A DNA stretch of 55,054 bases from a virus (lineage: Duplodnaviria > Caudoviricetes), in IMG/VR virus record IMGVR_UViG_3300049454_000015, positions 1 through 55,054 of that record, one strand, 5' to 3'. The position numbers and the translations under genes are program-made. The first letter of the stretch is position 1, and the number at the start of each line of letters is the position of its first letter. The notes under the pieces are model-generated. The model was not told the origin of the DNA. It did no database searches and saw only the letters and a program-made list of their open reading frames with translations. Positions 2,214 to 51,553 of the stretch are shown in pieces.

Positions 2214-2470
2214 GGGTGCTGGTTCCGCATCACGGTCAGCTGGTCGTCGCGGTGCAGGTGCATGGTGTGCGGAACCGAGCTGAAACCGCCGGGGTGTGGC
2301 TGCAGTAACACCACATCGACGCCACCGTCTGCGGCTGCTCGGGCTGCGGAAACGGCCGGGTCCGTGTCGAGCATCACCGTGGGTTCCTGATCTGCTCGGT
2401 GGTCTTGCACGACCAAGATGTGGTCGCCTTGGCGGACCGCGGCGGGGTGAATTGCGAGCACGCGAAACAT
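2210..2470 (-). CDS. hypothetical protein
   Basis: 86 aa, GAGGAG RBS, first gene after a conserved promoter cassette. Confidence 0.65.
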   Translation of the reverse strand: MFRVLAIHPAAVRQGDHILVVQDHRADQEPTVMLDTDPAVSAARAAADGGVDVVLLQPHPGGFSSVPHTMHLHRDDQLTVMRNQHP

Positions 2471-2492
2471 GGGGTGGTCTCCTCTCGCGCAT

Positions 2493-2554
2493 GCCAGGCG
2501 GGTGAAGGAATGCCCGTCGAACGCTAGCCAGACTCCGGACTGTTGTCAACAGTT
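2493..2554 (-). promoter_or_regulatory. conserved early promoter cassette (TTGACA-N17-TAGCGT, palindrome, CGCCTGGC box)
   Basis: minus strand AACTGTTGACAACAGT...TAGCGT...CCCGCCTGGCA then RBS. Confidence 0.8.
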
Positions 2555-2555
2555 C

Positions 2556-3746
2556 TTACGGGTGGTGTTTGGTGCGCTTCACCTCCCTGCCGATGACGGT
2601 CTGCTCCCAGCATGACAACACCTCGTCTCGATCGGATGCAGGCCAGTCCTCGGTTAGTGCCTCCACCCTGCCCTTGACGGCTTTCACCACATCCCAGACC
2701 AGCGGGCCGAGCAGTCGCGACAGACGCACGAGGTCGCAGATGTCGGCGGTTTTCTCGACCTCCGTCCACTGCTGATCGCCGAGGACCAGCGTCCCGTGTT
2801 CTTCCACGTACGCCCGCACGTCCGCGTCGACCGCCTTCACCGCCTTTTCCAGGAGTAGCCGCACCCCGTTGGCCTGGTCCCGCCACCCGATCCGGTCTTC
2901 CAGTTCCCCGCTGGCGAGTGCCCGGGCCAGCCGGGCGCCGTGGGTGGGGAGATCGGTGTAGGCCGGGCAGTCGTCCCGGACCACACACGAGGTGCAGCCG
3001 AGGTTGACCACCGGCAGTGCTTCATCGTCGCGGAGGATGGTGCGTGTTACAGCGACCGCCCAGGCGTGCCAGTCGTCGAGTTCGGCGTCGGTGTACCGCA
3101 CGGCCACGTCCCGCCATTTGGTGGCGTCCAGGTGGGTCCACACCACCGGCGTGCCGGCGTCGGGGAACGCCCGCTGCCAGTAGCGGCGCAGGATCCACGC
3201 CTGCCCCTTCAACTGGACGTCGCCGCGGATGTCGGCCAGCGACGGCGGGGCGCCGCGGGTTTTGAAGTCCACCGCGTGCAGGACGTTCGGCTCGTCCGGG
3301 TCCACCAGCGCCTTGTCGAGGATCGCCCGGTACCAGATCTGCCCGTGGTCCTCATCGTCGTACAGCGGCACCTGTAGGTCCATCTCGACGCCCACGGTGT
3401 GCATGACGTCCAGCGGCGAGGCCTCCCGAGCCAGGTAGGCGTCGAGGTCGCGGCGGGCCTCGACGAACAGGGCCGGGTCCATGTCGGCGGGGAACACCTG
3501 CGCCAGCGCCGCGTACGGGTCGATCTGCTGGGTCTCCGCGACTTCGAGCATCCGGTGAAACACCGTGCCGTAGCGCATCCGTTCCGATGGTTCGTCGACT
3601 ACCCCGTCGAGGTACCGGGCCCGGTACTTGCGTGGGCAGCCGCGGGGCTGTTCCTGCCCGGTGAGCCGGAATCCTTCCGCGCCGTACGTGCGGAGCCGGG
3701 TTGCCGACACGGTCGGGAACCCGGACTCCCCGGGGGGGATCTTCAC
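2556..3746 (-). CDS. PD-(D/E)XK exonuclease, Cas4/RecB-like
   Basis: CPRKY...GTVFH...E...ILD...DFKT...QL and C-terminal CTSC...C (split Fe-S cysteines). Confidence 0.8.
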   Translation of the reverse strand: MKIPPGESGFPTVSATRLRTYGAEGFRLTGQEQPRGCPRKYRARYLDGVVDEPSERMRYGTVFHRMLEVAETQQIDPYAALAQVFPADMDPALFVEARRDLDAYLAREASPLDVMHTVGVEMDLQVPLYDDEDHGQIWYRAILDKALVDPDEPNVLHAVDFKTRGAPPSLADIRGDVQLKGQAWILRRYWQRAFPDAGTPVVWTHLDATKWRDVAVRYTDAELDDWHAWAVAVTRTILRDDEALPVVNLGCTSCVVRDDCPAYTDLPTHGARLARALASGELEDRIGWRDQANGVRLLLEKAVKAVDADVRAYVEEHGTLVLGDQQWTEVEKTADICDLVRLSRLLGPLVWDVVKAVKGRVEALTEDWPASDRDEVLSCWEQTVIGREVKRTKHHP

Positions 3747-3988
3747 CGGTCACCCGTGGTGCATCGGTGGTCCAGGATCCAGTTGGCCAGCTGCGCCCGG
3801 TCCCACGCGATACCGCCGATAGCCCGGGCTCCGCAGTCGTCGCAGCGCAGTCCCCGCCACCGCAGGCGCATGCGGGACGAGCCAGCCACCAGCGGCTGCA
3901 CTACCCGGTAGATCTCCCCGACGCGCCGGGCCGCGGCCACCCGCTCCGCTGTTTCTTTGTCGTACTGCTCATCGTCCGGTTTGGTCAT
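3743..3988 (-). CDS. hypothetical protein with CxxC
   Basis: 81 aa, overlaps neighbouring genes at both ends. Confidence 0.55.
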   Translation of the reverse strand: MTKPDDEQYDKETAERVAAARRVGEIYRVVQPLVAGSSRMRLRWRGLRCDDCGARAIGGIAWDRAQLANWILDHRCTTGDR

Positions 3989-16661: not shown

Positions 16662-16907
16662 TCACTGCGGTTTCGAGTCGCGCCGGCTGCGCCGCCAGTA
16701 CCGGATGCCGAAGTGCAGGGGCAGCCACGCGCACAGCGCCCCGATGACCGCGAACGTGACCTCCATCGGCACGTACTTGACGATGAGGTCGGTCCAGGGG
16801 TCGGTGTTCGGGTCACCGTCGAACGCGGCGAGCAGCTCCAGCATGATCGCGAGCGCGGTGATGGCGAGGAACGTGCACAGCCACGCGTCGCGGGTGGACC
16901 GCTTCAC
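16662..16907 (-). CDS. 2-TM membrane protein (holin-like)
   Basis: two TMs, basic C-terminus; GTGA overlap with lysin. Confidence 0.65.
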   Translation of the reverse strand: MKRSTRDAWLCTFLAITALAIMLELLAAFDGDPNTDPWTDLIVKYVPMEVTFAVIGALCAWLPLHFGIRYWRRSRRDSKPQ

Positions 16908-17380
16908 GCCGGCCGCCGCAGCAGCCGGACGAGCCGCACCAACTCCACGCCGTACTTCGGATCAGACGGGGCCCACGGGCCGAGCTGGTGAACGTTCGGG
17001 GCAATGCCACGCAACACCCAGTCGCTACGCGGGTCCGGGTTCCACGTCGGCAACGGGCCGGTGCTGGCGTAGGCGAGCAGGTGGCAGGCGTGGGCCTGCG
17101 CGCCGGTGTGCAGGTCGACGAACCGGGCGTGCGCGTTCGGGTCGTCATCGTCGCCACCGGCCCGGGTCTTCAACCCGCAGGTGTTGTTGAAGCTGGCATT
17201 GACGCCGCCTTTCCCCCCGAAGCGGCCCCAGCCGGTCTCGCGGGCGCACTGGGCGGCCAAGACCACCGGGTCTACGCCGGTGCGCTCCCCGGCGGCCCAC
17301 AGCGCCCCCAGCGCCCCCAGCGTGTACCAGGGCGCCGGGTTCTGGGTGAGCGCGTTGCGCAGCACCGTCTCATACGTCAC
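16904..17380 (-). CDS. GH73 glucosaminidase-like lysin (catalytic domain only)
   Basis: GVDPVVLAAQCARETGWG...NNTCGLK...WAPSDPKYG. Confidence 0.8.
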   Translation of the reverse strand: MTYETVLRNALTQNPAPWYTLGALGALWAAGERTGVDPVVLAAQCARETGWGRFGGKGGVNASFNNTCGLKTRAGGDDDDPNAHARFVDLHTGAQAHACHLLAYASTGPLPTWNPDPRSDWVLRGIAPNVHQLGPWAPSDPKYGVELVRLVRLLRRPA

Positions 17381-29425: not shown

Positions 29426-30523
29426 CTACGAATCGTAGGACACGGAACCGATCATGGCCCGGTCCTGGCCGTGCGCCTCGCCGAGGAACCCGGCGGTCAG
29501 GGACAAGGTGGGGGAGCCGGCGGCCTGGGCGTGGGTGGCGTCTTGCACGGTCAGGTTGGGGAAGGTCAGCAGCGCGTTGTCGGCGGTCTGGGCGTGTGCC
29601 GCGTTCGCGACGGTGAGGACATGGGTCTGGGTGAGGGTCGGTGACGTCGCCGTCTGGGCGTGGCCGGCGTTCGCGACGGCCAGGACGTGGACCTGTGTCA
29701 GTGCGGCGTTCTGCACGGTCTGGGCCTGCGCCGCGTTCGCCACGACCAGCTGGTGAACCTGTGTCAGCGCGGCGTTGCCGGCGGTCTGCGCGTGGGTGGC
29801 GTCCGCGACGGTGAGGTCGATCGCGGAGGATGCCACCGCGGCGGACAGGTCCACGGCGTACGGGGCGTACGGGCCGAGCGGGGCGTGGTCGGTGATCGCG
29901 GTACCGGAGACGGTGCCGTTCTGCCGGTTCCCCGACAGGTCCGGTTCGGGGGAGGCCCCCCAGATCGGCAGGTACAAGACCAACTTGTCCGGGCGGATGT
30001 GATGCGGATGCGCGCCTTTCGCCAGCGCGGCGATCTCCGCGGCCGACAACGCCACCGACCACACGCCCAACTCGGCGTAATCCCCGTCCTGATGCAAATT
30101 GAACGCGCCGTTATCCCAGGTACCCACGTACAGGTCGTTGCTGGCGTTGTAGGCGATCGGCCGATTCTCCGCGGCGGTCGAGGATTCGGCGCCGTCGAGG
30201 TACATGCGGATGTCGGACAGGTCGTAGGTGCCGGCGACGTGCCGCCACGCGCCGTTGTACAGGTCCGTCGTGCAATTCGCCCGGCTCGTGTTCCCCGCGG
30301 AAGTGCCCCACCCGATCTCGAAGCACAGGAAGTTCCCGCCACCGCCGGTGGTGTGCCACGCGTACGAGGCGTGCTCGCCGGTGGTGAGCACTTTCTCGAA
30401 CAGGTACTTGAAGTTCCCCGACCGACCGGCCGACCTGAACCACATCGCGCAGGTGATCTGCGCCGGTTCCAGCGTCGCCGTACGCGAGATCGCGATCTGG
30501 TCGGACGTGAATGTCCGCGCCAT
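29426..30523 (-). CDS. LamG/concanavalin-like virion protein with about 22-aa repeats
   Basis: WRHVAGTYD...MYLDG...ALSAAEIAAL; five LxVAxAxHAQTAxxxxLT repeats. Confidence 0.8.
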   Translation of the reverse strand: MARTFTSDQIAISRTATLEPAQITCAMWFRSAGRSGNFKYLFEKVLTTGEHASYAWHTTGGGGNFLCFEIGWGTSAGNTSRANCTTDLYNGAWRHVAGTYDLSDIRMYLDGAESSTAAENRPIAYNASNDLYVGTWDNGAFNLHQDGDYAELGVWSVALSAAEIAALAKGAHPHHIRPDKLVLYLPIWGASPEPDLSGNRQNGTVSGTAITDHAPLGPYAPYAVDLSAAVASSAIDLTVADATHAQTAGNAALTQVHQLVVANAAQAQTVQNAALTQVHVLAVANAGHAQTATSPTLTQTHVLTVANAAHAQTADNALLTFPNLTVQDATHAQAAGSPTLSLTAGFLGEAHGQDRAMIGSVSYDS

Positions 30524-30525
30524 CG

Positions 30526-31026
30526 TCAGATGTCCACTTGCAGGAACGCCGCGTACAGCTCCGTGTTGACGGTCAGGGTGTCGTTGGCGTGGTTGCCGTT
30601 GTGGGTGATCTCAACGATCAGCAGATCGTCCGCGGCCAGCGCCTCGGTCAGGCTGCCGGCGGCCGGGAACGTAACCGTCTTACGGAGCCGCGCCGTGCCG
30701 GGCGTAGTGATGTCCTGGGCGGTCTCCGCGGTCAACGCCGCGGGGTTCAGCGACTCGGCGTCCGCGACTGCTTTCGTAGCGACCGTGAGCCTGGTTACCT
30801 CACTGGTCGCACTCGCGGCGATATCCAGGATGATCTTCCCCGCCGGGGTGCCGGCGACGTTCTTCGGGACCGGCACCACGCCGTAGATCCTGCCCTCGAC
30901 GTCCTTCACGAACTCCCACCGGGCGGCGTCCCACGCGGTCAACGCACCGACCGTGAAAAAGGCGTTGCCACCGAGGGTCGCTACCCGCGGGTTCCGCAGG
31001 TCGATCGGGATCCGGATCGTGGTCAT
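30526..31026 (-). CDS. virion-associated beta protein
   Basis: 166 aa within the structural operon. Confidence 0.65.
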   Translation of the reverse strand: MTTIRIPIDLRNPRVATLGGNAFFTVGALTAWDAARWEFVKDVEGRIYGVVPVPKNVAGTPAGKIILDIAASATSEVTRLTVATKAVADAESLNPAALTAETAQDITTPGTARLRKTVTFPAAGSLTEALAADDLLIVEITHNGNHANDTLTVNTELYAAFLQVDI

Positions 31027-31056
31027 GGGTCAAAACTCCGCTCGGTCCGGGCCCGG

Positions 31057-31428
31057 TCAGGTGGGGTCTCGTACCTCGATTATCCAGGCCGGAACGTTCA
31101 CGGTGTTCGCTGCGGTCACCGCCTGACTAGTGCAGGTCGTGACGTACCGCAAGGTGGTGTCGCCAACCTTCGCCAACGCGATATGAGTTGCGGTCCCGGA
31201 GTTGTCGACGGTAACCGCGGACTTCGCTGCCACCGTGACTTTCCGGCCCGACACGTCACCGTTGGCTTTGGTGTAGTCCGTATCCGGGGTCATCGCCACA
31301 TCGGCCAGCGAAACCGCGGCGATCCCCGCGTAGTTCGCCGGTTCGCCGGAGCACACGTGCATGATGTCGGACTGGTCGATGTAGTCGAACATGGAATCGA
31401 TCGTGGCATCGGGTGCAGCCTTGCCCAT
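31057..31428 (-). CDS. virion-associated protein (fibre connector-like)
   Basis: NGDVSGRKVTVAAK...GTATHIAL...YVTT. Confidence 0.7.
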   Translation of the reverse strand: MGKAAPDATIDSMFDYIDQSDIMHVCSGEPANYAGIAAVSLADVAMTPDTDYTKANGDVSGRKVTVAAKSAVTVDNSGTATHIALAKVGDTTLRYVTTCTSQAVTAANTVNVPAWIIEVRDPT

Positions 31429-31447
31429 GGTGTGCCCCTGCTCGTGT

Positions 31448-31612
31448 GGGCCCGGCCCGTCTGCGGCCGGGCCGGGGCGTTACCTGACGGACGGATGCGC
31501 AGGGCCCCGCTCTCCAGGCTCACGGGCGCCCGCCGACCTTCCTGTCCGCAGCCTGGCCGGACATCCCGCCCTGATCGCGCACCCTACTGGGGAAGATCGT
31601 CACCGCAGCATA
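31448..31612 (-). other. structured non-coding leader (putative -10 TATGCT, pseudoknot, terminal hairpin)
   Basis: TGTCCG/CGGACA stem whose loop CCAGGCT matches downstream AGCCTGG; 9-bp GC hairpin before the RBS. Confidence 0.45.
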
Positions 31613-36657: not shown

Positions 36658-37796
36658 AGCAATCTCTCCCTCAGAGCTGCGAATACGTCCTCTTGTGATG
36701 GGTCGATGAGCGGCTGAGTGAGTCCAGCCCACACCTCATCCAGATCGTCCCCGGCCGCGTGGGGTTCCCCGGTGTCCTGTACGGCTTCCCGTGCGCCTTC
36801 CTGCTCGCCTTCCTGTTCGGGCGGATCGGCGCCGGGATCCGGACCGTCTCCAGCGTGGTCCGGATCCGGCGCCGTCCCCGGGCCCGCAGCGTCCCCGCCG
36901 CTGCCAACAGACCCGGGATCCCCTCCCGCCACAGGGGGGCCTTCATCTTCGGTGCGAGGCGTCTCATCCTCGGCACCGGGATCGCCGCCTGACTGGGCCT
37001 GGTCCTGGCCGGCTGTGTTGACGGGCACCGGAACCGGTGTCGGGGCAGAGTCGCGGCCCGGGTAGCGGAACCGGCCGGAGGTCGACAACGCAGTCAGGTC
37101 GAACCGGCTACGGGCCCGGGCCCCGTCCGGGTCGGTCTCCGGCTCGTCCGGGTCCTCACCTGGGCGACGCGGCGGCGTGTCGGCCTGCTGGTCGGCCAGG
37201 CCGGTGTCCACCGCTTCGGACGCGGTGAGCCACATCTCCCCGCGCATCCGTTCCCGCCACTCCTCGCGGTCCCCGCCCGCGCGGGCCGCGTAGATCCCGG
37301 CGATCTCGCCGGACAGCTTGTCCAGCAGGTCCCGCATGGTGTCCATGTCCCCGGCGTTGCCGATGCAGATGCCCGACGCGTCGTGAATCATCATCTGCGC
37401 GCCGCGGTTCATGGTGACGTGGTCACCGGCCTGCGCCACGAACGACGCCGCGGAAGCGGCCATCCCGTCCACGACCACGTTCACCACGGACGGGTGGTCC
37501 AGCAACGCGTTGTAGATGACCAGCCCCTCGAACACCTCCCCGCCGGGGGAGTTGATCCGCAGCGTCAGTTCCGGCGCCCGGATCTCGTTCAACGTGGCCA
37601 CGAAGTCCTCGGCGCACACGCCCCAGAAGCCGATCTCATCGTAGATGTGCAGCTCAGGTGCGCCGTTGTCGTGGTTGACGAGCCGGAACCAGGACCGATC
37701 CGGGGTCTTCTGCAGGTTCCGAACCGGGCCGCTCGCGGTGTTGGCTGGCCGGGGAATGTCCACTCGCCGCATAGGCGTGTGCCTGCGTCTGGTCAT
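36654..37796 (-). CDS. ClpP-like (S14) prohead protease
   Basis: IYDEIG...INSPGGEVFEG...AASAAS...MMIHDAS. Confidence 0.9.
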   Translation of the reverse strand: MTRRRHTPMRRVDIPRPANTASGPVRNLQKTPDRSWFRLVNHDNGAPELHIYDEIGFWGVCAEDFVATLNEIRAPELTLRINSPGGEVFEGLVIYNALLDHPSVVNVVVDGMAASAASFVAQAGDHVTMNRGAQMMIHDASGICIGNAGDMDTMRDLLDKLSGEIAGIYAARAGGDREEWRERMRGEMWLTASEAVDTGLADQQADTPPRRPGEDPDEPETDPDGARARSRFDLTALSTSGRFRYPGRDSAPTPVPVPVNTAGQDQAQSGGDPGAEDETPRTEDEGPPVAGGDPGSVGSGGDAAGPGTAPDPDHAGDGPDPGADPPEQEGEQEGAREAVQDTGEPHAAGDDLDEVWAGLTQPLIDPSQEDVFAALRERLL

Positions 37797-39367
37797 GTCT
37801 TCTCCGGTTCCTTTTCCTGCCACTTCGACCGGTCGTCACCGCCGCGGTACACGGCGACGACCTGGCCGCGGCACCGCAACCCGCCCTCACACCGGATGTA
37901 GGTCCCGGCCGGGTACTCGGCTACGGCGTCATCAATGCTGTTGCCGAGCCACCGGCCGTTGATCTCCCGGCAGGGCCCGCACGTGTTGGCGTCCAGGGTC
38001 TCATTGCCGTAGTAGGCGGTCACGGGCGCCGCGCGCATCGTGGCGATACGCCCGTGGTGCTGGGCCTCCGACAGGGCCCCGCCGAGCTGCAGCCGCGGCT
38101 GCGCGTCGGTGAGCGCGTCGAGGTGTTCCCGGACCCGCGCCGCCACGTCGGCGCCAGGCGCGCCGGGCCAGTGCACCCGCAGAGCCTCCCGCGCCGCGGA
38201 CAGCACCACCCCGGTGCCGAGGATCCCCGCAGCGACCGCGGCGAGCACCACCAGGGTGTCACGGACCGGATGCGCCGCAACCACCTCCAACGCGCCCTGT
38301 GCGACGGCTTCCGCGGCGGCCCCCTCCGCGGCGAGCGTGGCCAGCTCGACCATAACGTCGGTCAGGGTCTCGGTAGCCCCGGCGTCGGGGGCAGTCAGGG
38401 TGGACAGCCGGCCGAGGTCCCCGGCGTCGATGGCTTCGGCGATCTGGCGGGCCAGGTCGGTGTACTGCTCGTCCAGGATCGGACCCCACGCGGCCAGCAG
38501 CTGCGCCAGGGCGTCTTCCCACTGCTGCTGAAGCTCGGACAGGTCCACGTCCGGCGCGCCCGGCCCGTCGTCGTCTGCGGCGGCCCACGGCGGCGGCCAG
38601 CCGGCGACGATCGGACGGCGGGACATGGTCGCCCCCGGAGCAGGGGGCACGGGCACCTGCTCCGGGGGCGGGTCAGGGGGCAACACAATCAGCGTCATGT
38701 CGTACCCGAATTTATCGTTTTTCTTGACGCTGGCCACGGCGAAATTCAGGCCGTCGGGCAGGACAATCTCCCGCTCATCCGGGTTCCTGGAATAGCGCGC
38801 GGCGAAAACCGCCGGGGTTCCCTTCGGCACGGCAATTTTCATTTGAACGTTGCCCAGTGAACCGCCGTAGGCCAACCCCAGGGACACCGAGCTGAACCCG
38901 GCATCTTTCACTTTTTTGCCGGCCAAGTCCTCGATCGGGACCGAGCCGAACGCGTCGAGGGAGACCGTTCGGGTAAGTATCAGGTCGTCCTCGGTCGGGT
39001 GCATCGCCGCCCGAAGATTGTCGATCGTAGTGGACTCGTCGATGTCCTTACCCGCGCGCAATGCCCGGTTGATCTCTAGGAACGCGTCTCCGGTGTAGCG
39101 GTCCACGGCGTTGGACTGGTCCTCGGGCAGGGCCGGACCGCTGTTCAGATAGTCGGTTGCTTCCTGGTCAGACGCGAATTTCTTCGGTCTGAAATTGGAG
39201 ATTATCTCGTTGCCGGCTGCCTTGTCCTCGTCGGTGAGTTCGACCGTCCGGGACTTCGTGAACCGGCCGCGTCGGTCACGCGGGTGCAGTGCGGGGTTCC
39301 ACTCGTCCCACGGTCCCCAGTCCAGGTCAACGAGGTGACCCGTGGTCTGTTCCCACGTAGCGGTCAT
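37793..39367 (-). CDS. VIP2-like ADP-ribosyltransferase fused to MuF-like head protein
   Basis: YT..F.EINRALR...LTRTV...GFSSVSL...EREIVLP (R-S-E); C-terminal DANTCGPC...CEGGLRCRG; between portal and protease. Confidence 0.8.
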   Translation of the reverse strand: MTATWEQTTGHLVDLDWGPWDEWNPALHPRDRRGRFTKSRTVELTDEDKAAGNEIISNFRPKKFASDQEATDYLNSGPALPEDQSNAVDRYTGDAFLEINRALRAGKDIDESTTIDNLRAAMHPTEDDLILTRTVSLDAFGSVPIEDLAGKKVKDAGFSSVSLGLAYGGSLGNVQMKIAVPKGTPAVFAARYSRNPDEREIVLPDGLNFAVASVKKNDKFGYDMTLIVLPPDPPPEQVPVPPAPGATMSRRPIVAGWPPPWAAADDDGPGAPDVDLSELQQQWEDALAQLLAAWGPILDEQYTDLARQIAEAIDAGDLGRLSTLTAPDAGATETLTDVMVELATLAAEGAAAEAVAQGALEVVAAHPVRDTLVVLAAVAAGILGTGVVLSAAREALRVHWPGAPGADVAARVREHLDALTDAQPRLQLGGALSEAQHHGRIATMRAAPVTAYYGNETLDANTCGPCREINGRWLGNSIDDAVAEYPAGTYIRCEGGLRCRGQVVAVYRGGDDRSKWQEKEPEKT

Positions 39368-42204: not shown

Positions 42205-42470
42205 TGGCCGGTAGCCCTCCGGCATACGCCGATCTCGTCCGCCAGTACCACCAGCACCTGTAGGTCGAACTGCTTCGACTTGACGGTCTCCGCGATGTCC
42301 GCCACGTACCGGTCCAGCTGATCGTTCGACATGGGCCCCTTGACGCGGATTACCAGCGCATCGCCCGGGCCGACCGACACGGCCTGAGCTATCCGGCGTA
42401 GCCACGCCGCTGCTTCGGTCTCGGCCGGGCCTGCGTCGGGGCTGGTTGAGGTGGTCTCCTCGGTGGTCAC
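42201..42470 (-). CDS. hypothetical protein
   Basis: GTGA overlap with TerL. Confidence 0.55.
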   Translation of the reverse strand: MTTEETTSTSPDAGPAETEAAAWLRRIAQAVSVGPGDALVIRVKGPMSNDQLDRYVADIAETVKSKQFDLQVLVVLADEIGVCRRATGQ

Positions 42471-43846
42471 ATGAACCTCACGTTGGGCTGTCCGCCGAGG
42501 TCACGTTCGGCGACCAGGTACCGCATCGCGTCCATGCCGTGGTCGTTGTCCTTCACTGGCGCCTCTTTCTGCTTGTCCCACACGTAGGCCCCGATCTCAT
42601 CGACGGTGCACACCGGCAGCTTCCGGTCGTCAAGGTCCTGGTCCAGCTCGACCAGCGAATCGCGGAGCACGAACAACCGCGGCCGGCCATCCCCGGCCGG
42701 GCGGATCCTCGACTTGGTGGCGTCGATGCCGTCCGCCACGTTCTTCTCGGCCGCCGTCGTGGACCGGCCCAGATGCCGTTCAAGGGTGGCGCGGCCCTCA
42801 GCGTCGTGGTCGCAGACGATCCCCCGCGGCTCCGGCTCGGTCCAGCGGACCGAGCGGTGCAGGTAGTCCGGTTGCCCGTCCGGGCCGGGCGGGACGGTCC
42901 GCTGGTCGGTGACCTGGGCAAGGACCGTGCGGGCGTGGTCCTCGACCAGCTGTCGGGTCCGGTAGATCTCCCGGTACAGGAACAGCCGGCCGTCCGTGTC
43001 TTCGGCCCAGCACTGCCACACAAACGGGTTGGTGTACCCGAAGTCCACGACCCACCACCGGTCCCAGTCCCGGGGGATCCAGAACCTGTCGACCAGGTTC
43101 ACCGCCGGATCCCACTCTTCGTAGATCACCCCTTCCGCCGCCACCCACAGCCCATCTTTGAGACGCAGCCGGCGAACCCCGGTGAGCTTCCCCAGCTTCC
43201 CCTCGACGTAGTCACGGCCCCGGTCGGTGGGGGTGCCGTCCTCGTGGAAGTACACCGGATTGTCGGTGTGCCGGCACCCCAGGATCCGGGTCGCCCCGTC
43301 ATCGCAGCGTTTCTTCAGCCAGTGCGTAGGAGCGGACGGGTTCGTGTCCGCGATGACCTGCTGGTAGGGCATCGTGCCGTGCCGCAGCCGCGTCACGATC
43401 GCTTCCCAGTCGTCCACCGTCAACTCGACTGCCTCTTGCACGAACACCACGTCGTACTCCGTCGACATGATCTTGCTTGGCTTGTCCATCCCGCCGATGC
43501 TGACCGTCGACCCGTTCGCATACCGGTACTGCGGCGGATGCCGCCGCGACCCCCCGTGGTAGGTCACCAACCCCGTACGCAGCGCCTCCGGGATCACCGT
43601 CTCTTCCCAGGTCTGCAGAGCAGACGACGTCAACGACACGGCGGTCTTACGCACGATCAGGCCATGCGCGCCCGGGTACTTCAAGGACTGCAGATGCAGC
43701 TTTTCCAGGCATGCCCTGCTCTTGCCGGTGCCAGCGGGCCCGGACATGAGGATCTCGGGTTCCCGGCACTCCAGCAACGCCCGCGCCGCGCCGCGCGGCG
43801 CGTAATGGTGGACGAGCCGCTCACCGTCCAGCACATCCGCGGTCAC
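42467..43846 (-). CDS. terL: terminase large subunit (PBSX-like)
   Basis: Walker A GPAGTGKS, Walker B VFVQEA, DTNP, VDFG, NDHGMDAMRY. Confidence 0.93.
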   Translation of the reverse strand: MTADVLDGERLVHHYAPRGAARALLECREPEILMSGPAGTGKSRACLEKLHLQSLKYPGAHGLIVRKTAVSLTSSALQTWEETVIPEALRTGLVTYHGGSRRHPPQYRYANGSTVSIGGMDKPSKIMSTEYDVVFVQEAVELTVDDWEAIVTRLRHGTMPYQQVIADTNPSAPTHWLKKRCDDGATRILGCRHTDNPVYFHEDGTPTDRGRDYVEGKLGKLTGVRRLRLKDGLWVAAEGVIYEEWDPAVNLVDRFWIPRDWDRWWVVDFGYTNPFVWQCWAEDTDGRLFLYREIYRTRQLVEDHARTVLAQVTDQRTVPPGPDGQPDYLHRSVRWTEPEPRGIVCDHDAEGRATLERHLGRSTTAAEKNVADGIDATKSRIRPAGDGRPRLFVLRDSLVELDQDLDDRKLPVCTVDEIGAYVWDKQKEAPVKDNDHGMDAMRYLVAERDLGGQPNVRFM

Positions 43847-47906: not shown

Positions 47907-48197
47907 TCAGTCTGCCTCCGGCCAGGTCATCGTGTAGCCGACCTGCGCGACCAACGAGACCGCGGCACCTATAGTCACGCTGGTTTCGTTCACCTCGTAA
48001 GTGCTCTTGATGATTCCCGAGATGACCAAGGCGACCTGGCCGAGCTGCTCACTGGTGAGATCCGGGAACGAATCCATCAGCCCGTCGCGCACCGTGGCGA
48101 TGTGCACCTGCAGAGTCGTCCTGTTGCGCGCCCAGGGGGCGCGCGCCATCTCGGTGCGCACCTGGTCCAGGTAGGCGCTCGCTTGGGGGCTGATCAT
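47907..48197 (-). CDS. helical hypothetical protein, paralog A
   Basis: SPQASAYLDQ...FPDLTSEQLGQVA; CACCTGGC box (48213-48220) plus AAGGA RBS. Confidence 0.65.
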   Translation of the reverse strand: MISPQASAYLDQVRTEMARAPWARNRTTLQVHIATVRDGLMDSFPDLTSEQLGQVALVISGIIKSTYEVNETSVTIGAAVSLVAQVGYTMTWPEAD

Positions 48198-48335
48198 CGG
48201 TGATTCCTTTCGGCCAGGTGGGTGCGGGAGAGGCCGGCCCCCTCTCCACTGGTACTGGAGAGGGAACCGGCCCCGGTCATTCTGCGTCACACCCGCGTGT
48301 GTTGTGCGGACACTCGTGGGATGGATTGGTGCTGG

Positions 48336-49514
48336 TTACAGCGCGGGCGTCACAAGAAGCAGCGGCCGGTTCGCTCCGGGCGCAACGATGATCTTCCCGT
48401 TGCGGGTGACCAGCCAGTTACGGACCTGGTTGGGCTGCCACGACGGGACGGCCTGCAGGACCCGGGCAGCGGCCCCCGCGACGTGCGGGGCAGCCATGGA
48501 GGTGCCGGACAGCGACGCGTATGCGGCGTCGCTGGTCCGCCAGCTCGACAGGATCCCGACGCCGGGGGCGTACAGGTCCACGATCACCCCGAAGTTCGAG
48601 AAGCCGGCGCGGAGGTCACCCGCGTCGGTCGCACCGACCGTGATCCCGGACAGCACATGCGCCGGTGAGAACTCCGCCGCGTCCTTGTTGCTGTTGCCCG
48701 CGGCCAGGACGTAGGTCACGCCTGATTCGATGGAGGCGTGCACGGCCAGGTCCAGGGCGTTCGTCGCCTGGCCGCACTCGCATCCGAGGCTCATGTTCGC
48801 CACTGCCGGTCGGGCGGTGTTCCCGGTCACCCAGTTCACCCCGGAGATCACCCCGGCCAGCGAACCGGAGCCGGCGCAGTCGAGCACCTTCACGGCCTTG
48901 AGCCTCACGCCCTTGGCCACCCCGACCAGCCGGCCGCCGATGGTGCCGGCGACGTGCGTGCCGTGGCCGTTGCAGTCGACGTTCCCGCCACCCGTACCGG
49001 GAGCGGTGAAACCCCAGCTCGCGCGGCCACCGAACTCCCGGTGAGTCGTCCGAATCCCAGTGTCGATCACGTAGGCGACCACACCGGCGCCGGTCCGGGT
49101 GTACCCGTACTTGTGATCCAGCGGCAACAGCTTCTGATCGATGCGGTCCAACCCCCACGACGGCGGGTTCGGCTGCGTCGTCGCGGTGGCATTCACCACC
49201 ACGTTCGGCTGCACGAACTGCACCGCAGCGGACCGGGCAAGCTTCTTGGCCTGCCCGGCAGAGATCCGGACCTCTGCACCATTGATCGCGGACCGCCACC
49301 GGACAGCCGCCTTGAAGCCAGCCGGCAACTCCCGGCCCGGCTTGAGCACCACGATGTACGAACCGGGTACCACCTTCGCGGCCCCGACATCAGTCCGCAG
49401 CGTTCCTACAGGCTCGGCATGCGCAGTGCCCATACCCGCGCCGGCTACCGCCAGGACAACAGCGACCAGCGCGGCTCCCGCGACTCGCAGAGCCGCGCAC
49501 CAACGTTCGTTCAT
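48336..49514 (-). CDS. secreted S8A subtilisin-like protease (aqualysin/proteinase K type) with I9 propeptide
   Basis: signal peptide, YIVVLK propeptide, WGLDRIDQ, catalytic triad IDTG / HGTHVAG / GTSMAAPHVAG. Confidence 0.93.
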   Translation of the reverse strand: MNERWCAALRVAGAALVAVVLAVAGAGMGTAHAEPVGTLRTDVGAAKVVPGSYIVVLKPGRELPAGFKAAVRWRSAINGAEVRISAGQAKKLARSAAVQFVQPNVVVNATATTQPNPPSWGLDRIDQKLLPLDHKYGYTRTGAGVVAYVIDTGIRTTHREFGGRASWGFTAPGTGGGNVDCNGHGTHVAGTIGGRLVGVAKGVRLKAVKVLDCAGSGSLAGVISGVNWVTGNTARPAVANMSLGCECGQATNALDLAVHASIESGVTYVLAAGNSNKDAAEFSPAHVLSGITVGATDAGDLRAGFSNFGVIVDLYAPGVGILSSWRTSDAAYASLSGTSMAAPHVAGAAARVLQAVPSWQPNQVRNWLVTRNGKIIVAPGANRPLLLVTPAL

Positions 49515-49570
49515 GTACAGGCCTTTCGATCTTCTCTTGCGAAGCGGCGCACCGGCTGGTGGCCACTAAG

Positions 49571-49651
49571 CGCCCCCGGTGGGACTCGAACCCACCCGCG
49601 GCCCCGGAGCTGACGACCGGCCCGGGGACCGTGGCTGCGCCGCGCGGGGGC
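49571..49651 (-). ncRNA. tRNA-like RNA (acceptor stem and T-arm, no D-stem)
   Basis: GCCCCCG/CGGGGGC 7-bp stem, GTGGG-TTCGAGT-CCCAC T-arm, long central stem; no encoded CCA. Confidence 0.6.
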
Positions 49652-49677
49652 ACACCCGAGTATGCGTCCGGGGTACG

Positions 49678-50268
49678 TCAGTACCTGGGATCGGCGGCGT
49701 CGCCGGTTTCCGGCGTAGGCTCGCGGGGATCCTCGGCCACCTCGTAGAGCTGATCAACGACCCGACCCAGCAGCTCGTTGAGCGCCAGCGCGCCAGACCG
49801 GGAGAACCGCAGCACCGCCCCGTAGACGAACCCCTGCCCGCCGGCATCGGTGTAGCTGTTCAGGGGAAGCGCAACCTCCGCCGCGTGGTAACGCATCGGC
49901 GGGAACTCCTCGTCAGCTACCCGCCGGCCACGGTCGTGATCTTCGTAGACCTGCGCGATCGTCTCGTCCGCGTGCTCTTCGAAAACCGCGATCGGCTCGA
50001 CGTGCCTGGTTCCGGCGTCGAAGCTGATCGCGGGCGGGTAGCGTTCCGTCTGGCTCACGGTCACGGTGACCGGCGGCAGCTGGGCACCGCGGTAGGCGGC
50101 GCGGTACTGCCGGGCTGCGGCGAGCGCAGCAAACAGCTGCGGGTTGTAGGGCTGCTCGCCACCCGCTCCCTGTTCGGCGAACTCGATCAGCTCGTCTGCG
50201 CTCATGTAGCCCAGCTCGACGGCCGGATGCGCGGCGTCAGGGGTCGGGTCAGTGGTTGGTTCGACCAT
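49678..50268 (-). CDS. hypothetical protein
   Basis: 196 aa; GGGAG RBS after cassette. Confidence 0.7.
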   Translation of the reverse strand: MVEPTTDPTPDAAHPAVELGYMSADELIEFAEQGAGGEQPYNPQLFAALAAARQYRAAYRGAQLPPVTVTVSQTERYPPAISFDAGTRHVEPIAVFEEHADETIAQVYEDHDRGRRVADEEFPPMRYHAAEVALPLNSYTDAGGQGFVYGAVLRFSRSGALALNELLGRVVDQLYEVAEDPREPTPETGDAADPRY

Positions 50269-50284
50269 GGGGTCTCTCCCGGTT

Positions 50285-50335
50285 GCCAGGTGCGGGTTGG
50301 ATACGCGGAGACGCTACCACATAGTCAACAGTTTT
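50285..50335 (-). promoter_or_regulatory. cassette with shortened spacer
   Basis: AAAACTGTTGACT-N6-TAGCGT...GCACCTGGCAA. Confidence 0.6.
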
Positions 50336-50443
50336 CGCGGGCAGATCCCCGGGCCCACCCCCGGACGCGGGGGAGCCCGGTGCAGGGAGACCACCCCTCC
50401 CCGCACCGGGCCCGTCATACCCCCCGCAAGGGGGCTGCCTCTA

Positions 50444-50884
50444 CTACCCGACCGCCGAAGACGGGACCACCATCGTCACCGCGATGACGGTCCGCTGCCG
50501 CCGCGCCTTCGGCAGATTCCGGGAGTCGACCGCGAACCGCACCCCCAGATGCCGCGGACCGAAGTCGATGCGGCCTGCGCAGTCATCCGGGATGATCCCG
50601 CATTCGACCAGCGCGTCAGGAACGAAATTCCACAGCGTCTGCGCGTAGTTCTGCGGGTCACGCCGGTTCGCGGTCGGGAACACCAACTGCGCGGACAACC
50701 CCACCTGCGCCACCCCCCGGGGAACCATGTTCTCTTCCAACTGGGTGCGCAGGTGCCGCAGCCACTTCTTTTTGCAGCCGGACTGCCAGTGCGGCAGCCA
50801 CCGGTCGTACTCGTTTTTGCTCGGCGGCAGGAACGGCAACAACAGCTGGTAGCCCCTCGCTTCCCCCTGCGTGAGGCTGTTCAT
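50444..50884 (-). CDS. RusA-like Holliday junction resolvase
   Basis: PPSKN...RRDPQNY...DALVECGIIPDD; start could be 50986 or 50992. Confidence 0.7.
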   Translation of the reverse strand: MNSLTQGEARGYQLLLPFLPPSKNEYDRWLPHWQSGCKKKWLRHLRTQLEENMVPRGVAQVGLSAQLVFPTANRRDPQNYAQTLWNFVPDALVECGIIPDDCAGRIDFGPRHLGVRFAVDSRNLPKARRQRTVIAVTMVVPSSAVG

Positions 50885-50982
50885 AGGAAACCCCAGTTGC
50901 ACCGGCCGGGCCGTCACCCCCGACCTTGAACGCTGGTGAACCAGTACGCGGCCAGCCAAACCCGTGTCGGTGACAGGCTGTG

Positions 50983-51402
50983 TCATCGGCATTCCCGTAG
51001 TCGAGGGTCGGACGGATCCAACCCGTTAGTGACGGCCATCGTCCGATAGTCCGGGTACAGGTCGTGGCCACCATCGGCGACCTGATCCGGATCTATTCTG
51101 CCAGCCCGCACCGACAAACGGACAGCGAGATTGTGCTCAGCGCCGCGCAACAGGAATCCCGCGCAGGTCAGAGGACTTTCGATGTCGGATTCGTGACACG
51201 CGAACTTGCGCTGAGACATGTCGTAGGCAGTCTCAGCGGAATGGGCAAAAGCCTCAGCCGGGAACTGGCCGGTCTGGTCGACCCGCCACGGGCAACCACC
51301 ACACGGGCGGCGCCGATAACCAGACGTACCACCCTCCACGGAGACGACCTGATGGTCATCACCGGCCGGACGTACCCGCGTGATATCGCCTTTCGGCTTC
51401 AC
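50983..51402 (-). CDS. DUF6283-like Cys-rich protein
   Basis: PCGGCPWR...FPAEAF...AYDMS...FACH...CAGFL. Confidence 0.7.
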   Translation of the reverse strand: MKPKGDITRVRPAGDDHQVVSVEGGTSGYRRRPCGGCPWRVDQTGQFPAEAFAHSAETAYDMSQRKFACHESDIESPLTCAGFLLRGAEHNLAVRLSVRAGRIDPDQVADGGHDLYPDYRTMAVTNGLDPSDPRLRECR

Positions 51403-51439
51403 AGCCGCACCCTCCCTTAGACCAGTGGAGGCGGGACAA

Positions 51440-51480
51440 TCCCCGGTCTATGTTCGAGGACGACGAACATAGACCGGGGA
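51440..51480. terminator. 17-bp perfect hairpin
   Basis: TCCCCGGTCTATGTTCG-AGGACGA-CGAACATAGACCGGGGA. Confidence 0.7.
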
Positions 51481-51553
51481 AGTGCTCGCGGTCAATCACG
51501 GATGACTTGGTGAACTTAAGAAATCGTCAACTCTCGAACGGTGAGACGGCGTT

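Follow-up and report, generated by a model that had tools for sequence, protein, structure and literature searches.

What kind of gene begins and ends like a transfer RNA (tRNA) and carries something else in between? The question is raised by an 81-nucleotide (nt) element on the minus strand of IMG/VR virus record IMGVR_UViG_3300049454_000015 (Duplodnaviria; Caudoviricetes), immediately upstream of a subtilisin gene. The whole 55,054-nt stretch of the record was analyzed and is referred to here as the window. Both ends of the element are of tRNA origin, it lies between genes, and it is not a tRNA, a transfer-messenger RNA (tmRNA), or an active phage attachment site (attP). The best explanation, held with roughly even confidence, is that a tRNA gene carried by the phage was rearranged and that the element is its remnant, unable to decode and perhaps still processed. 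The element would then have a full-length origin, would probably be transcribed along with its neighbors, and may be processed; a selected role as a processing signal or a decoy is possible.

The element occupies positions 49571..49651 of the minus strand, on which all of its parts are read. The sequence reported for this interval by the first-pass annotation, which was made from the letters alone, is present letter for letter, as is every stem described there. The 5' acceptor strand GCCCCCG (49645..49651) forms seven of seven Watson-Crick pairs with the 3' acceptor strand CGGGGGC (49572..49578), and the pair at 3:70 is C:G. A 10-nt unpaired region containing GG (49635..49644) replaces the D arm; at best it folds into a 3-base-pair (bp) stem with a 3-nt loop, drawing on bases that follow. 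The anticodon arm and variable loop are replaced by a 39-nt G+C-rich hairpin (49596..49634) that has 12 pairs, one A/C mismatch, one bulged T, and a 14-nt loop, without a 7-nt anticodon loop. A canonical T arm, GTGGG-TTCGAGT-CCCAC (49579..49595), identical in real tRNAs, leads into the 3' acceptor strand and a discriminator G (49571), after which CCA is not encoded. At the 5' boundary there is U at -1 and G at +1. The hexamer CATACT (49659..49664) lies 7 nt 5' of G1; its position, the missing CCA, and the missing G3:U70 pair all agree with the first-pass annotation. CATACT resembles a -10 box at four of six positions, including A2 and T6, and could be one; it has no -35 partner and was unreported by the promoter scan. 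No repeat of the element longer than 12 nt is present elsewhere in the window.

Neither tRNA nor tmRNA is an appropriate class for the element. At default settings ARAGORN calls no gene in the window and Rfam gives no match at the gathering score, so the predicted absence of a full tRNA call was correct. The best sub-threshold Rfam matches are mascRNA (20.4 bits; gathering score, 42.5) and tRNA-Sec (13.2 bits; gathering score, 47). The element does have the 7-bp acceptor stacked on a 5-bp T stem with a TTCRANY loop that is expected of a canonical tRNA. It does not have a canonical D arm (a 3-4-bp stem with a loop containing G18 and G19), and its D region is unlike the D arms of 21 related tRNAs. 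It does not have a canonical anticodon arm either (5-bp stem, 7-nt loop, and U33), the 12-bp hairpin with its 14-nt loop being found in that place. Without an anticodon loop the element is unable to decode, and a role as a decoy for anticodon nucleases, as had been suggested, is unlikely for the same reason. tmRNA can be dismissed as well: ARAGORN makes no such call even at a 70% threshold, Rfam finds none, and C:G is present where G3:U70 is expected. The further suggestion of an antisense regulator comparable to P1 C4 or P4 CI RNA is not borne out, since the longest matches to potential targets are 12 nt (expectation value [E] of 0.41), which is not above chance. An intrinsic terminator was also considered and rejected; the terminator scan of positions 48000-51500 was silent, and what comes after the hairpin is the T arm, not a run of T.

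The ancestry of the 3' end is revealed by comparison with cellular genomes. The last 25 nt of the element (T arm, 3' acceptor strand, and discriminator) are found exactly in 14 contigs among the 185,579 species genomes scanned. Twelve of these matches are the 3' end of a called tRNA (nine tRNA-Arg, two tRNA-Ala, and one tRNA-Val), mostly in Chloroflexota and Chloracidobacterium, and the remaining two are stand-alone fragments. Of 401 sampled Actinomycetota genomes, 37 (3 unpublished) contain a 24-nt version when up to one mismatch is allowed, and in 4 of the 401 it is exact. In most of the Actinomycetota loci that were fetched, the 24-nt sequence is part of a tRNA of 74-75 nt whose anticodon is that of Leu (UAA or CAA); the other loci include long-armed tRNA-Leu(CAA) of the ordinary type, tRNA-Arg(CCG), and one tRNA-Lys. 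Bacterial tRNA-Leu normally has a long variable arm. Members of the short tRNA-Leu lineage have a class-I shape with a 5-nt variable loop, acceptor GCCCCCG, and discriminator A (L210:1451-1525, L213:1452-1525, L234:1500-1573, and others).

The match to tRNA also stands out from the background of the window when its parts are taken together. The T-loop word GGTTCGANTCC alone is a weak signal, with one match in the window and at least one in 23 of 100 shuffles. The combined motif, in which a TTCRANY loop on a 5-bp T stem adjoins a 7-bp acceptor, turns up in just 7 of 200 block-shuffled versions of the window. A covariance model built from 15 real short tRNAs (R2) ranks the element first in the window with 25.6 bits and a rough E of 3e-4, the runner-up scoring 13.5 bits. 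The 25-nt identity, the rarity of the combined motif in shuffles, and the top rank with R2 put it beyond reasonable doubt that the 3' part is tRNA-derived. As for the 5' acceptor strand, GCCCCCG occurs 26 times on the two strands of the window, which gives a chance of about 1.8% that an exact copy falls within 75 nt upstream.

The middle of the element is another matter. Its 49 nt were compared with the middles of 21 real tRNAs whose ends are those of the element, and the best score was -1.0. Shuffled versions scored -2.04 +/- 2.19 and 98 of 300 were as good, leaving no residual tRNA similarity. In the control comparisons, real family members scored 19-40 against each other, and a decayed copy in Gordonia phage Daredevil scored 10, which 0 of 300 shuffles equaled. 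The ends, by comparison, are letter-perfect over the 7-nt 5' strand and the 24-25-nt 3' part. Letter-perfect ends around a middle without tRNA signal exclude even, gradual decay, and the earlier argument that intact stems speak against simple decay is upheld. The middle either has been replaced or was never part of a tRNA. A full-length origin seems favored over a bare 3' fragment, with moderate support.

The element lies in a 163-nt gap, which is unusual among the tightly packed genes of this phage, and it is on the gene strand amid a run of co-oriented genes. The upstream gene (49678..50268, minus strand) encodes a 196-amino-acid (aa) protein with no family match, and its stop codon is 26 nt before the element. 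The downstream gene (48336..49514, minus strand) encodes an S8 subtilisin of 392 aa (PF00082; E of 4.4e-41), and its ATG is 56 nt past the element. The 196-aa open reading frame (ORF) has a coding-type G+C content by codon position (0.76/0.47/0.82). Two ORFs that overlap the element have a non-coding profile, with second-position G+C contents of 0.83 and 0.73. The element is therefore intergenic.

A single sequence of events could account for the element as a remnant. The ancestor would have been a full-length phage tRNA gene with acceptor GCCCCCG/CGGGGGC and the T arm described above, from a lineage that is mostly tRNA-Leu(UAA/CAA) in Actinomycetota and tRNA-Arg, tRNA-Ala, or tRNA-Val elsewhere. 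The D arm, anticodon arm, and variable loop would have been swapped for the 12-bp G+C-rich hairpin, probably in one rearrangement that left the acceptor stem and T arm untouched. Co-transcription with the neighboring genes is suggested by their shared orientation and by the location of the element among them on the coding strand. In tRNAs, the stacked acceptor/T-arm helix is the main feature recognized by RNase P, RNase Z, and the CCA-adding enzyme. Excision of the 81-nt RNA by RNase P and RNase Z is likely because this helix is intact, with U at -1 and G at +1, and such excision would sever the upstream message from the subtilisin message.

The existence of comparable copies in other phages is consistent with the remnant explanation. 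In both Gordonia phage Daredevil and Mycobacterium phage MalagasyRose there is an aberrant copy that shares the T arm and acceptor of the element and is not near an integrase. The Daredevil copy (3886-3963; L249:1452-1529) is an unannotated, degenerate member of the short tRNA-Leu lineage. It is located in a 1.2-kilobase (kb) gene-free gap that is flanked by an HNH endonuclease gene on one side and the terminase region on the other, and the Daredevil integrase, at ~43.5 kb, is ~40 kb away. The MalagasyRose copy (445-529; L251) is annotated as "tRNA-Pyl (cta)", and its T arm and 3' acceptor match the element at 24 of 24 positions. Like the element, it has a small D region and a long hairpin at the site of the anticodon arm, without a normal anticodon loop. 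It differs in having a 3-bp D stem with a GG-containing loop, a discriminator A, and a default ARAGORN call. No tyrosine integrase is present in the MalagasyRose record, and 445-529 is without a homologue in 50,697 phage records. Adjacent to it, at 307-378, is a "tRNA-OTHER" with an anticodon arm of a 4-bp stem and a 3-4-nt loop. The "Pyl" label of 445-529 looks like a gene-finder artifact.

Several results weigh against the remnant explanation. A second possible 5' acceptor strand, GTCCCCG (49623..49629, minus strand), lies inside the hairpin and gives a 59-nt inner form (49571-49629), which both covariance models prefer over the 81-nt form. When G-U pairs are allowed, the chance of finding a 5' partner rises to 22%. 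With this chance and a second partner at hand, a 3' fragment paired by chance is conceivable. The whole element has an ordinary folding energy (z of -0.91, with 36 of 200 shuffles as good), and that of the whole gap is ordinary as well (z of 0.01). The hairpin alone gives a z of -1.88, with 9 of 200 shuffles as good. Folding energy is uninformative in DNA this G+C-rich. The explanation also assumes a single rearrangement with letter-perfect ends, for which selection on the top half of the molecule could account just as well.

The lack of relatives counts against the remnant explanation as well, since no homologue of the element was found in the viral, metagenome, or phage collections searched. 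An exact 26-nt sequence of the element gives no match in IMG/VR. A gapped pattern gives 69 matches in metagenome contigs, all of them ordinary tRNAs by eye (27 distinct sequences listed). A covariance model of the element (R1) gives a best E of 1 over 80 terminase-related loci, and blastn against the 50,697 phage records gives T-arm matches only. The 196-aa neighbor has no relative in IMG/VR or in isolated phages. None of 41 subtilisin loci (at most 52% identity) has an upstream tRNA-like sequence, except for an unrelated odd tRNA in L037. That tRNA (L037:2399-2475, plus strand), on an unrelated viral contig, has an 8-nt anticodon loop (four-base "ttta") and is ~530 nt 5' of a subtilisin homologue. 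The 80 terminase loci and 10 DUF6283 loci have no other early gene in common. A match of 25 of 29 nt to the 5' part of the element, in L134, is antisense inside a coding region and was judged to be due to chance.

The same perfect ends invite a second explanation, which is doubtful but the strongest of the alternatives: the element may be a selected, functional mimic of the top half of a tRNA. RNase P would cut at G1, the 3' end would be trimmed, and CCA would be added. The product might act as punctuation that releases and defines the subtilisin messenger RNA (mRNA); alternatively, it might engage host factors that recognize the acceptor/T-arm helix, serving as their decoy or scaffold. A perfect acceptor and T arm beside a wholly non-tRNA middle would be expected of such an RNA, as would U at -1 and G at +1. 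A contact with the T loop, of the kind seen in tRNA-like domains that lack a D stem, could be made by the GG of the D region. The unusual size of the gap among tightly packed genes is also consistent with selection. However, without a homologue there is no covariation to support the mimic, and the folding energy of the element is ordinary.

Similar architectures, which also favor a selected mimic, are found in L122, in MalagasyRose 445-529, and in 13 further tRNA-like sequences from IMG/VR. The L122 sequence (16900-16993, plus strand) is intergenic in a phage whose terminase is 53% identical to that of the window. Its acceptor, D, and T arms are canonical and its discriminator is G, and a 13-bp arm with a 5-nt loop replaces the anticodon stem-loop. 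Its folding gives a z of -4.64, with 0 of 200 shuffles as good, and it is uncalled by default ARAGORN. A pattern scan of IMG/VR, built for tRNAs that are longer than usual in the part from the D arm to the T loop, gave 58 loci (47 distinct sequences listed). Fourteen of these, including the contig of L122, are uncalled by default ARAGORN, and most of the 14 form an enlarged arm where the anticodon arm would be. Textbook D and T arms with odd or enlarged anticodon regions are seen in L258, L259, L272, L274, L277, L280, L284, L286, L287, L295, L297, and L304; these uncalled sequences are 83-106 nt long, and several have arms of 9-17 bp. A long variable arm is normally limited to Leu, Ser, and Tyr tRNAs in bacteria. 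Phage tRNA-Ile(TAT) and tRNA-Lys(TTT) with long variable arms (~85-95 nt) are present in L255, L261, L264, L257, L267, L270, and others. Just 5' of a terminase gene, L115:9825-9951 (plus strand) is a 127-nt tRNA-like sequence with an insert of ~43 nt in the D-loop region containing a perfect 8-bp hairpin, and ARAGORN calls it only with introns allowed. The MalagasyRose, Daredevil, L122, and uncalled IMG/VR sequences show that anticodon-defective tRNA-like genes are no rarity among phages; they do not establish a function for any of them. The comparison elements share no sequence with the window element beyond the tRNA consensus (best E of 1 with R1 for the other long-arm elements), and the MalagasyRose element is also a singleton, which argues against a selected mimic.

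A broader proposal, which seems rather unlikely, is that some of these sequences represent an unrecognized class of phage RNA. The acceptor/T-arm half of a tRNA would be kept for processing, CCA addition, and stability, and a hairpin of ~12-13 bp would have another function, as a protein-binding site or a decoy. In the present phage it would serve in the release of the subtilisin mRNA as well. The class would include the window element, MalagasyRose 445-529, L122:16900-16993, and several of the enlarged-arm IMG/VR sequences.

A third explanation is that the element is the 3' fragment of a tRNA gene left by site-specific recombination, either as the attP core or attachment-site scar of an integrase-bearing ancestor or as a sequence captured with the subtilisin gene, its 5' strand pairing by chance. 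The first-pass annotation had named an attP core identical to a host tRNA, with no transcript, as one finding that would overturn its proposal. Half of this holds: the identity is real (25 of 25 nt with the 3' part of 12 bacterial tRNA genes), and the same core adjoins integrase genes in other phages. In Rhodococcus phage REQ2 it occupies 30256-30286, with the integrase gene (30324-31529) 38 nt away; the copy in Gordonia phage Trax (3649-3672) is ~220 nt from its integrase gene (2322-3425). Neville and Rabbitrun have core matches, by sequence, near the Trax coordinates. A stand-alone 29-nt fragment of the short tRNA-Leu lineage is present in Bifidobacterium animalis, which has the full gene elsewhere in its genome. 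This fragment (L052:1900-2300) is embedded in several copies of a direct repeat of ~35 nt. The REQ2, Trax, and B. animalis cases make an attP-type origin realistic, and the short tRNA-Leu lineage is a regular target of integration. Some integrases are said, in work by Williams from 2002, to cross over in the T loop, and the identity between the element and tRNAs begins at the T stem, as it would with such enzymes. Integration-derived tRNA fragments are described as common, and as often mis-scored as tRNAs, in PMC9897764. The 22% chance of a 5' partner with G-U pairs is also in keeping with a fragment.

Nevertheless, an origin by recombination is unlikely. The 55-kb record is rated complete by CheckV and has no match to PF00589, PF07508, or PF00239, the families of tyrosine and serine integrases, and the neighbors of the element are the 196-aa gene and the subtilisin gene; an active attP is rejected on these grounds. 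The cores of REQ2 and Trax resemble the element in being stand-alone 3' tRNA parts in a phage genome, and their T-arm/acceptor sequence matches that of the element (0-3 mismatches over 24-31 nt). They differ in that they are adjacent to an integrase and in that their identity to host-type tRNA spans the anticodon loop to the 3' end, whereas that of the element ends at the T stem and is accompanied by a perfect 5' acceptor strand. An exact Watson-Crick 5' strand is expected by chance at only the ~1.8% given above. The discriminator is G, whereas it is A in the actinobacterial lineage, and the sole Actinomycetota genome among the 14 exact 25-nt matches is that of B. animalis, with its fragment. 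Capture together with the subtilisin gene cannot have been recent, as the subtilisin is just 52-59% identical to its closest bacterial homologues (Saccharothrix, Actinosynnema, and Micromonospora).

It is highly improbable that the element is a working tRNA of unconventional type, either a tRNA-Pro(CGG) from which a 16-nt insert is removed or a UCA-reading tRNA with an oversized loop. At relaxed thresholds only, ARAGORN calls the element with a four-base "anticodon" or, with introns allowed and a threshold of 90%, as tRNA-Pro(CGG) with a 16-nt insert after position 37; the Rfam tRNA-Sec model aligns the loop UCA. However, ARAGORN puts introns at that position by design, and at default thresholds the element is uncalled with or without introns. 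The loop as drawn has C at position 33 in place of U33, and the D arm has 3 bp and a 3-nt loop. A 16-nt insert is too short for a group I intron, and neither a splicing endonuclease (PF01974) nor an RtcB ligase (PF01139) is present in the record; an intron-containing tRNA was rejected. The tRNA-Sec score is far under the gathering score. Least probable of all is a chance G+C-rich, palindrome-rich spacer without tRNA ancestry, which would suit the ordinary folding z-scores and the frequency of the T-loop word in shuffles but not the 25-nt identity to real tRNAs, the rarity of the combined motif, or the rough E with R2.

The phage itself is a siphophage, probably of soil actinobacteria, with a soil actinomycete as its likely host. 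Its 55,054-bp genome has 67.9% G+C and carries nearly all genes on the minus strand. Among public sequencing runs the DNA is found in one soil metagenome DNA run only, and the reads of this run contain the source contig only, identical and with no variants. Its large terminase (42467-43846) is 58.5% identical to that of Thermobifida phage P1312 and 51.9% identical to that of Streptomyces phage Dagobah, the nearest isolated phages by this protein. The record also encodes a portal and a major capsid protein, an endolysin, an HNH endonuclease, a PD-(D/E)XK nuclease, helix-turn-helix (HTH) regulators, a RusA-like resolvase, and a DUF6283 protein. Adjoining the portal gene is a gene for a 524-aa protein (37793-39367, minus strand) with an ADP-ribosyltransferase exoenzyme domain (PF03496; E of 7.6e-15). 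The N terminus of the subtilisin resembles a signal peptide, and the product is predicted to be secreted. The stored subtilisin call (P0001, 365 aa) begins 27 codons late and drops the signal peptide. The phage subtilisin is without the C-terminal domains present in its 500-aa bacterial relatives. Its only close relative, with 69% identity (P0002), is encoded on a 44,450-bp Logan contig, probably from another phage.

As it stands, the element is a curiosity, one more aberrant phage tRNA-like gene that is invisible to standard gene finders, with a 3' end that corresponds to a tRNA core used for integration by other actinophages. If the top-half-only design is selected, the element would be a compact natural tRNA minihelix that a bacterial virus uses as a module for RNA processing or stability, and the long-armed tRNA-like sequences of IMG/VR would merit a systematic survey. 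There is also a lesson for annotation: in very G+C-rich DNA, a perfect acceptor stem and T arm are not enough for a tRNA. The novelty is modest. A literature search at the level of abstracts and main-text passages found no anticodon-less, D-stem-less tRNA-like RNA described in an actinophage. The supplementary tables of PMC10690425 are indicated to hold candidate tRNA-like structures from IMG/VR and may bear on novelty.

Known tRNA-like RNAs provide the closest functional parallels. P1 C4 and P4 CI, which are processed by RNase P, and T4 stable RNAs C and D are small phage RNAs freed from longer transcripts by means of tRNA-like recognition. They are antisense to defined targets, whereas the element has no target above chance. 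The tRNA-like domain of tmRNA has the same topology as the element, with an acceptor and T arm, a stemless D region, and RNA ends that form the acceptor. The element differs from tmRNA in lacking G3:U70, a tag reading frame, and pseudoknots, and it is just 81 nt long. YrlA, according to PMC4201824, is a tRNA mimic of actinobacteria and mycobacteriophages, and that of M. smegmatis undergoes cleavage by RNase P RNA and CCA addition by way of a 7-bp acceptor-like stem. YrlA keeps both the D and T arms, has a Ro60-binding stem and a GNCGAA motif, and adjoins rsr, as outlined in the same source; it was rejected as the class of the element, which has no Rfam match to it and lies in a record with no match to PF05731 (TROVE/Ro60). 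The mascRNA/menRNA family (RF01684), the best sub-threshold Rfam match, is tRNA-like, is excised from a long transcript by RNase P and RNase Z, and has a reduced anticodon arm. It is a vertebrate family, and its likeness to the phage element is one of convergence on the tRNA shape only.

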